Shown here: one piece after another, positions 40,972-42,966 of the stretch | How the letters are laid out: every line of letters begins with the position of its first letter | How positions within the stretch are numbered: position 1 is the first letter of the stretch | DNA from: Bacteroidota bacterium | Lineage (GTDB): Bacteria > Bacteroidota > Ignavibacteria > UBA10030 > UBA8401 | NCBI GenBank assembly: GCA_027622375.1 | Contig: JAQCAB010000003.1 | Coordinates: 22,797 to 86,796, forward strand | Length of the DNA: 64,000 nt | Direction: 5' to 3' | Notes under the pieces: generated by a model | What the model was told of the DNA's origin: nothing | The model's input: the letters and a program-made list of their open reading frames with translations, nothing else | The model's database searches: none | Made by a program: the position numbers and the translations under genes

Positions 40972-42966
40972 TTATTCTTTTTGTTCACCTTCAGTTTGTG
41001 TAGTTGCTTCTTCTTCAACTTCTGGTTTTGTTTCTTCTTGAACTGCAGCTAAAGTTCCCAATCCACTTTTTACATAAGTTCGAATCATTTTTGTAATTCT
41101 TCTTCTTGCTTTTAATTCATCATCAGGTGATAAAGATTTTAATGAAGCCATTCTATCTTCAAGTAGTGCTCTTGATTTAGATGGAAGCAGAGATAAAATT
41201 CTTTCATTAATTTCAGGAGGAGCATTTTTTAATGCCATTGATAATTCTTCACCCGAAATATCACGCGCAAGCTGTCGCAACATTCTATCATCCAATTTAC
41301 CAATAGCTTGAAACGCTACTCGTTGATTCGATATTTCACGGAATAAATCTAAGTTGATTGTTTTAATAAAATCAACTATTGTGGATTCAGTTGTTTCATC
41401 TAAATTATCAAAAATATCAAGTAGCATATCGCTACCTTGTACTTGTACATTATTTATAACAGGAATTGATGATGCTTTTGTTGCGAGTTGACTCGCTACA
41501 GATTTATATGTGTCTGAATCCATTCTTCTAAGTTTACCAAGTTCTAGTGCAACTTCTCCCTGTTGCATTGATGGTAAATTTTTCAACATTTGACTTGCAA
41601 TTGGGGTTGAAAGTTGCGAAAGAATTATTGCAATAATTCCAGGTGTTTCTTCTTTCATCATCATATACAATTGAGAATCAGTTAATTTTTCTAAAAAGGT
41701 AAAAGGATTTTTAGCTGTATTTCTAGACTCTTCAAATCGTTTGACCATAATTTGTGTGTCAAAATATTGAAGTGCTTGTTTTTTATCATCAAGTGTTTTG
41801 CTGATTGGCTCCAGTGTTATTTCTTGAATTTTTTTTACTTCCTCAAGTGAAAAATAATCTTTCATCACTTTCAACATACTTCCACCAAGTTGCTCGGTAA
41901 CCATTGCGAGTTTTTCTTTTTGAGCTGGATCTCCCAACATTTCTTTTATAACATTTGATGCAATGCTTGATTCACCTGCACAAGTTGCTAATAATTTTGA
42001 ACGCATTTTTTCAACTTCAAAACCATTTGTCATCTCTTGAACTGATTCTTCAAAACTTGGTCCCCTTTTTTCAATATTTTCTGCAAGTGCTGGAACTTCA
42101 AATTGTTGTTGCGGTAAATATTCTATTTTTGGTTCTTTATTTTTCAGTCTTGTCAAGAACATATTTATTAATAATAATGCAATCACGAGTCCTAAAAAGA
42201 TTATTAAAAACCATTTTATGAGTGGATCAAATGAATCTCTAGCTTGTTGCTGTTGATCCTGAAGTTTTAAACGCTCTTCATCAATTTTTGTTTTTGTTTC
42301 GTTTAATTGATTTGTGAGTTCTGTAATTTTATTTTGTTGCTCTGATGTAATTTTTTCTTGAGTTTCTTTAGTTGATTTTTCAAGTTCCTCGATACGTTTT
42401 ACATTTTCAATTCTAATTTGTTCCTCAATTACTTTTTTCTCTTGCTCTAAATTTCCAATTTTTTTTAAAGCTTCTTGATTTTGTTGTTCAGATTTCGAAA
42501 GTTGTTCAGTCGGGAATACCATATCTTGCATTTCAATTTTATCTCCTCTGTCATTGTCAAGTTTAGCGGTATAAAATGCAATACTTTCTAATAAATCACG
42601 ATCTTCTTTTGATCTATTTTTTTCTACAACCAGTTTAATAGTTATATTTTCAATTGTAGGCCTTTTACTTACTTCAGTTTTTGATGCATCAAATCTTGAT
42701 GGTTCAAAACCTTGTGCACCTGGCAATCCTAAATCGCGAATATCTTGTGATTCTTCAGTTTGTGCAACTTCAGTTTCAGCAAAAGTAACTTGAGCGCTAA
42801 CAATATATTTTAAATCTGTAAAATATTTTTTTATTTCATTTGATATTCTAGCTTCGAGTTCTCGTTCCAACTTTTTTTTATCTGCTTCTAAATCTGCAGA
42901 AATTAAATTTGTAGATAAACAAAAAGTCCCAAAAAAGATAAAAATTAAATAAATTGATTTTTTCAT
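40972..42966 (-). CDS. FliF(ring domain + C-terminal helix)-FliG fusion protein with signal peptide, coiled coil and one TM
   Basis: aa25-152 resemble FliF RBM3 (LERELEARI...LPG...ITIKLVV...RGDKIEM..F); aa155-245 coiled coil; TM at 249-271; aa321-344 FliF C-helix-like; aa347-402 FliG_N-like; PFTFL...EETPG FliG_M; LDDR..R...R.I....L.MALK.A...ARRRI..MIR FliG_C. Confidence 0.85.
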   Translation of the reverse strand: MKKSIYLIFIFFGTFCLSTNLISADLEADKKKLERELEARISNEIKKYFTDLKYIVSAQVTFAETEVAQTEESQDIRDLGLPGAQGFEPSRFDASKTEVSKRPTIENITIKLVVEKNRSKEDRDLLESIAFYTAKLDNDRGDKIEMQDMVFPTEQLSKSEQQNQEALKKIGNLEQEKKVIEEQIRIENVKRIEELEKSTKETQEKITSEQQNKITELTNQLNETKTKIDEERLKLQDQQQQARDSFDPLIKWFLIIFLGLVIALLLINMFLTRLKNKEPKIEYLPQQQFEVPALAENIEKRGPSFEESVQEMTNGFEVEKMRSKLLATCAGESSIASNVIKEMLGDPAQKEKLAMVTEQLGGSMLKVMKDYFSLEEVKKIQEITLEPISKTLDDKKQALQYFDTQIMVKRFEESRNTAKNPFTFLEKLTDSQLYMMMKEETPGIIAIILSQLSTPIASQMLKNLPSMQQGEVALELGKLRRMDSDTYKSVASQLATKASSIPVINNVQVQGSDMLLDIFDNLDETTESTIVDFIKTINLDLFREISNQRVAFQAIGKLDDRMLRQLARDISGEELSMALKNAPPEINERILSLLPSKSRALLEDRMASLKSLSPDDELKARRRITKMIRTYVKSGLGTLAAVQEETKPEVEEEATTQTEGEQKE

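Follow-up and report, generated by a model that had tools for sequence, protein, structure and literature searches.

In the 64,000-nucleotide stretch of contig JAQCAB010000003.1 (Bacteroidota bacterium, assembly GCA_027622375.1) that we analyzed as a whole and call the window, a gene at 40972..42966 on the minus strand joins parts of the flagellar rotor proteins FliF and FliG. What does its product do in a genome in which FliM/N, the export gate, the rod and the filament were not found? The source assembly (1.73 Mb in 48 contigs) is 100% complete. It contains one match to FliG_C, which is the fusion gene itself, and three genes of the MotA/ExbB family, whereas no match to PF01514 (YscJ_FliF, which covers ring-building motifs (RBM) 1 and 2), FHIPEP, Flagellin_N or FliMN_C was obtained anywhere in this genome. 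The gene, labelled FliGL, encodes the C-terminal half of FliF joined head-to-tail to a whole FliG in one chain. The FliF portion consists of an RBM3 fold, one transmembrane (TM) helix and the FliG-binding C-terminal motif, and the FliG portion consists of a shortened N domain followed by the M and C domains. The parts of the gene are as follows.

40972..42966, minus strand: FliF-FliG fusion gene (FliGL), 664 amino acids (aa); open reading frame (ORF), 36 close relatives
42895..42966, minus strand: N-terminal hydrophobic segment, aa 1-24, putative cleavable signal peptide; read from the sequence
42511..42894, minus strand: predicted periplasmic RBM domain of FliF RBM3 type, aa 25-152; model, VIA-align, Foldseek, hhalign, PF08345 in relatives
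42664..42771, minus strand: short insert with an L-P-G motif at the place of the FliF beta-collar, aa 66-101; model, alignment
42235..42495, minus strand: two long helices in the periplasm, modelled as a hairpin, aa 158-244; model, superposition
42145..42225, minus strand: TM helix, equivalent to FliF TM2, aa 248-274; hydrophobicity scan, model, FliF alignment
41923..42057, minus strand: two helices with the FliF C-terminal FliG-binding motif, aa 304-348; hhalign, six FliF C-termini
41722..41922, minus strand: FliG_N-like domain, shortened by 27 columns at its end, aa 349-415; hhalign, VIA-align, Pfam in the relative P0054
41464..41706, minus strand: FliG_M, aa 421-501; Pfam aa 431-501, 53.5 bits (cut-off 25), 1lkv at 3.4e-26
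41059..41433, minus strand: FliG_C with the torque helix, aa 512-636; Pfam aa 535-635, 60.1 bits (cut-off 23.3)

The original prediction, made from the DNA letters alone, had described a natural single-chain FliF-FliG fusion, and both sequence profiles and fold back this description. For hhalign, the query was a profile of 60 family members and the FliF profile was built from six FliFs of flagellated genomes of the same phylum. Residues 119-349 of the fusion were collinear with FliF 365-560 (Prob 75.8, E 2.3e-5), and residue 560 is the last residue of FliF. Within this alignment fall the later half of RBM3, then the TM helix and lastly the conserved C-terminal motif, which was seen both in the six FliFs and in distant fusions. 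A second collinear alignment is weak (aa 20-63 on FliF 228-271, E 0.2) and is consistent with the structural superposition given below. Against 18 canonical FliGs, hhalign aligned aa 349-647 from the first conserved motif to the end of FliG (Prob 100, E 7.5e-43), with a single 27-column gap between aa 413 and 414. Furthermore, VIA-align sets model residues 345-348 on FliG residues 3-6. Because the ends of the hhalign and VIA-align alignments for FliF and FliG meet there, the end of FliF and the start of FliG lie within a few residues of aa 346-349. Thus, the FliF C-terminal helix pattern that had been read before the joint does end with the last FliF residue, on aa 349, and the FliG_N domain begins where real FliG begins; the estimate that the end of this domain is about 20 aa shorter corresponds to the 27-column gap. 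Such a joint would result if neighbouring genes for FliF and FliG were fused by read-through. These two genes adjoin and overlap in L037, a flagellated relative, and the same FliF-FliG joint is found in distant family members.

The FliG half was recognized by several methods. Full-length FliG structures were aligned to the model by VIA-align with Z-scores (Z) of 15.8 (3hjl) and 14.7 (8umd_B), and the C domain was superposed on 8ucs_H, which is FliG_C bound to MotAB, with a Z of 14.6 and a root-mean-square deviation (rmsd) of 1.7 Å. When the profile of the 36 close relatives was searched against the PDB, Thermotoga maritima FliG-MC (1lkv) was found at 3.4e-26, and no match was obtained for residues 1-370. 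FliG_M and FliG_C were both found in all 60 family members. The N domain is less evident to Pfam: FliG_N reached 19.7 bits in the fusion, under the cut-off, and was placed on the M domain, while in the relative P0054 it was found at the equivalent place with 37.6 bits. The FliG equivalog of NCBIfam, TIGR00207, did not reach its cut-off (96 bits against 226.7) and aligned with model positions 94-324 only.

The FliF half begins with a segment (aa 1-24) of two lysines and approximately 13 hydrophobic residues, followed by small residues at positions -3 and -1 relative to aa 25. From this n-h-c appearance, it is probably a cleavable signal peptide. The order of secondary structures in aa 25-152 of the model is alpha-beta-beta-alpha-beta. 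VIA-align set model residues 20/24..152 on Salmonella FliF 228/232..438 with a Z of 13.4-13.8 and an rmsd of 2.2 Å over approximately 100 residues, and other RBMs scored lower (EscJ, Z 8.8; PrgK D2, Z 8.6). Foldseek with the whole model found FliF S-ring/RBM3 chains at E of approximately 1e-3 beside FliG chains. The claim of one RBM3-like domain is therefore upheld by the order of its elements and by its likeness to Salmonella RBM3, and the comparison with FliF RBM3 by Foldseek gave the same answer. SpoIIIAG was not among the 50 VIA-align entries or the Foldseek rows listed, which says nothing against a likeness to it. OsmC/Ohr folds also aligned with this domain (Z of approximately 9); these values are well under that of FliF RBM3, and we took them as a common alpha/beta arrangement. 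PF08345 (YscJ_FliF_C) is faint in the fusion (13.6 bits, E 0.091, aa 95-151 on profile positions 86-147). It matches 24 of the 60 members of the wider family, however, with a best E of 7.1e-8 and with some members above the cut-off, such as P0063 at 27.8 bits. The absence of RBM1 and RBM2, suspected from the sequence, agrees with the lack of PF01514 matches in the fusion ORF. Without RBM1 and RBM2, the fusion would therefore lack the housing of the export gate, and such a protein fits a genome without matches to FlhA, FliF, flagellin and FliM/N.

In the place of the FliF collar, a 36-aa insert (66-101) lies between beta1 and beta2. P82 and G83 are invariant in all 60 family sequences, as are G141 and D142 further on, and L81 is kept in at least 90% of them. 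The aligned FliF range is approximately 207 residues compared with approximately 130 in the RBM3 domain of the fusion. The shortened collar around L-P-G, as proposed, may correspond to this insert, which is modelled at a predicted local distance difference test score (pLDDT) of less than 50. E. coli FliF has V-P-G within its collar insert. We dropped the idea that L-P-G is a collar motif of FliF; none of the six FliFs of flagellated relatives has [LIVM]-P-G there.

Between the ring domain and the TM helix, the model has 87 helical residues in two helices (158-197 and 200-244) with a two-residue break. A coiled coil of about 90 aa had been proposed here, as a stalk that holds the ring domain out into the periplasm. 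The helical stretch before the TM helix is present, but its reading as a coiled-coil stalk did not hold. Over 81-89 residues, these helices superpose on 6xns_A (Z 10.2) and MacA 3fpp_B (Z 9.7), a Z of about 10 being common for helices. Both templates are, as we take it, compact helical hairpins. The long version of these helices is found in only two of the 36 close relatives. Because of the hairpin-like superposition and the rarity of the long version, we do not accept a far-reaching stalk. Of the earlier interpretation, the part that stands, on profiles and fold, is a fusion without export-gate housing.

The full-length AlphaFold2 model, made from a 36-sequence alignment, has a mean pLDDT of 68.5. 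In order, it contains an N-terminal helix running into a helix (2-48), a strand (54-65), the low-confidence insert (66-101), a strand (102-115), a helix (120-133), a strand (143-149), the two helices 158-197 and 200-244, the TM helix (248-274), which is followed by basic residues, a disordered linker (275-303), and helices from 304 to 641.

The most telling context, namely the motA-motB pair, the tetratricopeptide repeat (TPR) gene and the barrel gene of the operon, was not used in the original prediction. The fusion gene is the last of five genes in the order outer-membrane barrel protein, TPR protein, MotA, MotB and fusion. The stop codon of motB and the start codon of the fusion overlap as ATGA, a 4-nucleotide overlap links the 370-aa gene with the TPR gene, and the other gaps are 1-3 nucleotides. 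The other features of the operon are as follows.

45297..46409, minus strand: 370-aa secreted protein with a predicted TolB-N/LpoB-like domain and an 8-stranded outer-membrane barrel; model m02539c8b5cc6, Foldseek
44473..45300, minus strand: secreted TPR protein, 275 aa; TPR_2 and TPR_1 at aa 232-263
43632..44471, minus strand: motA-like gene, 279 aa, flagellar stator type; PF01618, best solved relatives MotA and PomA at approximately 4e-24
42963..43628, minus strand: motB-like gene, 221 aa, plug and OmpA-like peptidoglycan-binding domain; PF13677, PF00691
40924..40945, minus strand: terminator-like hairpin just 3' of the fusion gene; consensus scan, 4 sites against 2.0 +/- 1.3 in shuffles

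A promoter scan of the same kind was no better than chance (39 sites against 37.6 in shuffles).

By its sequence, the neighbouring stator is of the flagellar type; it stays under the equivalog cut-offs of NCBIfam (for example, MotP at 132.5 against 394). The equivalent of E. coli MotB D32 is kept in 27 of 27 MotBs of such modules, and those of MotA P173 and P222 are kept in 25 of 25 MotAs. Together with the plug domain, this conservation predicts that the stator is functional. The model of the 370-aa protein (pLDDT 67.6) has an N-terminal alpha/beta domain and eight C-terminal strands. Foldseek matched the first part to TolB (2e-6), LpoB (4q6l, TMt 0.69) and FlgT (3w1e, 8e-4, rank 30), and the second part to the TM domain of OmpA (5e-5) and also to the Ail and NspA barrels. 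This protein matched no Pfam family, and searches against PDB sequences gave nothing credible (best E 0.009, a designed protein); with the TPR protein, they gave only generic or designed TPR proteins.

Several features around the operon were also observed. Downstream, at 38494-40911 on the minus strand, there are genes for a GCV_T-like folate-binding protein, a LOG/lysine-decarboxylase-like protein and a transglutaminase-like protein. Synteny of these three extends to as many as nine close loci (L002-L006, L008, L010, L011) and not to the more distant L012-L021; L007 and L009 have only the first of the three, at the contig end. They are probably unrelated to the module. At 32925-36158 (minus strand), a 1077-aa secreted protein without a Pfam family is encoded, and it has a homologue in L002 and L008. 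The sign of the GC skew changes at approximately 18000-20000 and 46000, and the latter coincides with a change of the coding strand.

Is this operon peculiar to one genome? In a collection clustered at 90% identity, 38 proteins match the fusion over its full length, and they are named from Ignavibacteria and Bacteroidota metagenome-assembled genomes (MAGs). A search of a word-indexed collection with a wide alignment gave the close family again and nothing new. The mean column identity among the 36 close relatives is 68%. An exhaustive profile search found 2738 proteins at E up to 1e-3; among the best 150 of these, more than 100 are 560-780 aa in length and align over nearly the whole profile. 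Nearly all of these distant relatives have an N-terminal hydrophobic segment, L-P-G at about 70-130 and a TM helix at about 170-310.

The neighbours are kept as well. In 20 close MAG loci, motB is directly upstream in all 18 that include any upstream DNA; 16 of the 20 have motA, 15 the TPR gene and 14 the 370-aa gene. At the distant loci (22-30% identity), TPR, motA and motB genes are within 3 kb in seven of seven. Among these seven, L034 carries all five genes, arranged differently, and another locus has a 998-aa protein and a long MotB instead. A second, paralogous module was observed in one family of the phylum (L029 5010-13039, also L033 and L035). There, the gene before that of the fusion encodes a secreted protein of 998 aa, which matches CarboxypepD_reg weakly and ends in a TPR-like part; a long extension at the C-terminus brings the MotB of this module to 610 aa.

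Among 301 sampled genomes of the phylum, we counted by hand 56 full-length copies of the fusion in 39 genomes, 17 of which carry two paralogues. Five carriers, this genome included, belong to the family of the window, two to a second family and 32 to a third; the fusion was not found in the three largest other families sampled (0/63, 0/22 and 0/16). Of the 301 genomes, 65 have FliF; among the 39 carriers, 11 have it and 28 do not. In all ten genomes checked, the number of flagellar-type MotA genes equals the number of fusion copies plus that of canonical FliG copies, and the extra MotA genes adjoin the fusion genes. Thus, each fusion copy in these ten genomes has its own dedicated MotA. Beyond the sampled phylum, the taxon range is given by database names and atlas leads. 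Relatives of one distant member are named from Fibrobacterota. In a protein atlas, clusters resembling the fusion and clusters resembling the 370-aa protein are both commonest in Balneolota and Bdellovibrionota, and look-alikes of the fusion alone were found in Elusimicrobiota, Pseudomonadota and Myxococcota; we treat these as leads only.

In an unrooted tree of the FliG part (80 rows), the 18 canonical FliGs and the 62 fusions are split at one branch (Shimodaira-Hasegawa-like approximate likelihood ratio test (SH-aLRT) 89). The canonical FliGs of carrier genomes group with other canonical FliGs and not with the fusions. Three soluble FliG-like proteins of approximately 310 aa (P0142, P0178, P0179) make up a separate group at the base of the canonical cluster (SH-aLRT 93). 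A 354-aa ORF at G184:C1:3621937-3622644 matches the periplasmic and TM half only (profile 31-247, E 1.6e-26); such a match would suit a paralogue of the FliF half only, or a split form.

How, then, might the fusion work? On balance, we consider it most likely, with a fair degree of confidence, that the protein forms a rotor that lacks rod and export, does not switch and is driven by a dedicated stator. The fusion copies would pack laterally through RBM3 into a ring in the inner membrane, whose cytoplasmic face would be a ring of FliG. Units of the MotA5B2 type, anchored to peptidoglycan by MotB, would draw on the proton (or sodium) gradient and push the torque helix of FliG_C, so that the ring would turn. 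Because FliM/N and the EHPQR motif are missing, the rotation would not be switched by chemotaxis signals. Because RBM1/RBM2, the export gate and the rod are missing, nothing would be exported or spun outside the cell. The mechanical output would be delivered inside the envelope, where the TPR and barrel proteins would probably be a scaffold or a driven partner. By analogy with high-torque flagellar motors, they could form a scaffold for the stator; by analogy with Tol-Pal, they could be the partner that is driven.

Residues of known function in FliG agree in part with this mechanism. EHPQR is the FliM-binding motif of FliG. E125 of E. coli FliG corresponds to E440, which is kept in 56 of the 60 family members, and H126, P127, Q128 and R160 correspond to T, P, G and E. 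By this alignment, the FliM-binding motif is lost in the fusion except for its glutamate. E. coli G195 corresponds to G511, which is invariant in 60 of 60. In the torque helix, K264 corresponds to K580, D288 to D604, and R281 to K597, a position that is K or R in 57 of 60.

A self-assembling ring is suggested by the RBM3 homology together with one oligomer prediction. Four copies of aa 23-156 gave a score of 0.42, whereas none of three controls exceeded 0.01; at least 45% of contacts recur between runs, and the partner pLDDT is at least 70. Of the proteins solved as pairs of one chain, 20 of 30 reached the mark for this score, compared with one of 23 solved as single chains. In the predicted interface, the beta-sheet (53-59, 111-113 and 147-152) packs against the helices of the neighbour (44-49 and 121-135). 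As modelled, this is the lateral packing of ring-building motifs.

Several points weigh against a driven rotor. The oligomer score is only just at the mark, and the job, with four copies and its own alignment, lies outside the calibration. Moreover, because FliF RBM3 rings are already solved, the pass may reflect memorized ring structures. The full-length model has only moderate confidence, as its mean pLDDT indicates. FliG rings are normally supported by FliM/N, for which there is no match here. The charges of the torque helix are kept in part: E. coli D288 corresponds to D604 in the fusion, but this position is D or E in only 11 of the 60 family members; D289 corresponds to R605 and is acidic in 18 of 60; and R297 corresponds to S613. 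On the stator side, the equivalent of E. coli MotA R90 is not reliably placed. HMMER, aligning to solved MotA, puts a glutamine there, 8 residues before the conserved glutamate of S-L-E. With MAFFT and E. coli MotA, the register is different and contradicts that of HMMER, and the cytoplasmic loop is poorly aligned. According to the accessible part of PMC12505986, MotA R90 and E98 contact FliG D288-D289 and R281. Finally, the module holds no payload gene (filament, adhesin, secretin or ATPase), and because of this the output of the rotor is a guess.

The main rival, which we judge unlikely though still the best of the alternatives, is a non-rotary force transducer similar to Tol/Ton. The fusion would be a small oligomer whose FliG domain is pushed by MotA. 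By way of the TM helix and then the helices in the periplasm, the movement would reach the RBM domain, which would pull or signal on the TPR and barrel proteins for the upkeep of the outer membrane or cell wall. The gene set does recall Tol-Pal (a MotAB-like motor, long periplasmic helices, and TolB-N-like, TPR and OmpA-like parts); the hairpin-like periplasmic helices and the missing payload gene also suit a transducer. However, the periplasmic domain is specifically of the RBM3 type, a known ring builder (Z 13.8 against 8.6-8.8 for other RBMs), and its predicted self-interface is of the lateral ring type. In addition, the stator is of the flagellar type with a plug, and the TolB-N/LpoB-like fold matches unrelated families too (TolB, LpoB and FlgT).

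Clearly less probable than a transducer is a sensor or regulator without mechanical output, in which the FliG part would dock onto MotAB and gate it, for example as an ion leak or as a sensor of proton motive force or envelope stress. Such a role would suit both a module in which no output component was found and a torque helix whose charges are only partly conserved across the family. A three-domain FliG, the FliF tail motif, RBM3 and the five-gene module are nevertheless kept over distant lineages. The idea is weakened because this conserved structure exceeds the needs of a docking site.

It is very improbable that the fusion is a decaying leftover or an accessory part of a true flagellum. 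All of its parts are flagellar in origin, and three of seven relatives in the family of the source genome have FliF and are flagellated. However, the 28 carriers without FliF have genomes at least 98% complete; in each of the 11 flagellated carriers, canonical FliF and FliG exist apart from the fusion, and a separate MotA is present in the five of these carriers that were checked. The strong conservation among the 36 relatives and the grouping of the fusions apart from the FliG of their hosts also argue against decay. The source genome is small (1.73 Mb) compared with its relatives of the same family (2.0-4.2 Mb).

The possibility that assembly or gene calling wrongly joined two genes is negligible, since the architecture is common to 36 close and more than 100 distant full-length relatives, the ORF is unbroken in 20 independent MAG loci, and the 56 copies in 39 genomes are joined by the Fibrobacterota records. 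The contig of a second assembler, from the probable source run, spans 40800-43800 unbroken with no differences over these 3 kb, although it is not independent evidence.

We then compared the driven rotor with known systems. The fusion shares RBM3, the TM helix, the FliF C-terminal motif, the FliG N, M and C domains and a flagellar-type MotAB partner with flagellar FliF and FliG, and its joint is exactly at the end of FliF and the start of FliG. In contrast to them, it is one chain without RBM1/RBM2 and possibly without TM1, it has a 36-aa insert apparently in place of the long collar, its FliG_N is 27 columns shorter, and EHPQR is reduced to the glutamate. FlgT, MotX/MotY and PflA/PflB are periplasmic stator scaffolds of high-torque flagellar motors. 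TolB-N-like and TPR proteins encoded beside a stator resemble these scaffolds; however, the likeness is at the level of fold only (FlgT, E 8e-4), there is no sequence relation, and we know of no counterpart of the barrel domain among them. In Tol-Pal, ExbBD-TonB, GldLM, AglRQS and Zorya, the coupling runs by way of partners in the membrane or periplasm, and these systems are not known to use FliG. In contrast, the coupling element here is a true FliG in the cytoplasm, and the stator is nearest to flagellar MotA and PomA. The likeness to these non-flagellar 5:2 motor systems (PMC12505986) lies in an ion-driven MotAB-like motor and in work on the envelope instead of swimming.

One natural FliF-FliG fusion was found in print, and it has a different architecture. 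As far as the accessible text describes it (Bergeron 2016, PMC4768692 / bioRxiv 023564), the Chlamydiaceae fusion occurs in bacteria without a flagellum, is approximately 330 aa in length, and has an RBM2-type domain with a further RBM-like stretch, two TM helices and only the FliG_M-like part of FliG, in the context of a type III secretion system and without a stator. Compared with that description, the present protein has 664 aa, RBM3, FliG N, M and C domains, its own MotAB and no PF01514. Head-to-tail single chains of FliF and FliG have also been made in the laboratory for Salmonella and Vibrio (PDB 8z4d and 8z4g), according to the available portion of PMC11481574. For the Vibrio fusion, which forms S-rings, the RBM3 part aligned with our model with a Z of 11.7 and an rmsd of 1.9 Å. 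In contrast to the natural protein, these fusions were engineered from full-length FliF and work within a complete flagellum. The MotAB-linked fusion family was not found described in our literature search, from which subscription journals and supplementary files were left out, nor in the accessible parts of PMC12505986, PMC12199754, 10.1101/023564, PMC13277936 and PMC1586193.

We therefore put forward, as a tentative proposal to which we give less than even weight, that the module represents a previously undescribed class of rotary envelope machine. It would have a single-chain rotor with its own MotAB and no export apparatus, rod, hook or filament, and would be coupled within the envelope to TPR and outer-membrane barrel proteins. 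It would form an old lineage apart from canonical FliG, present in several groups of Bacteroidota and Fibrobacterota and with leads to Bdellovibrionota, Myxococcota, Elusimicrobiota and Pseudomonadota.

According to the accessible part of PMC12199754, rotor proteins without filament genes occur in 11% of non-motile species and were left unexplained. For annotation, our result is a warning that a match to FliG or MotA/MotB in a non-motile genome need not be a remnant. The rotor-stator pair of the flagellum is the textbook example of a biological rotary motor and, to our knowledge, has been described only as part of the flagellum. If the proposal is true, the module would give this torque generator a second use in flagellum-free bacteria. 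It would also be a very small system for ring assembly and torque, with one rotor protein, no FliM/N and no export gate. Moreover, it would provide material on how the motor and the export parts of the flagellum came together, and, depending on the root of the FliG tree, it may be a living model of a stage at which rotor and stator existed apart from type III export.

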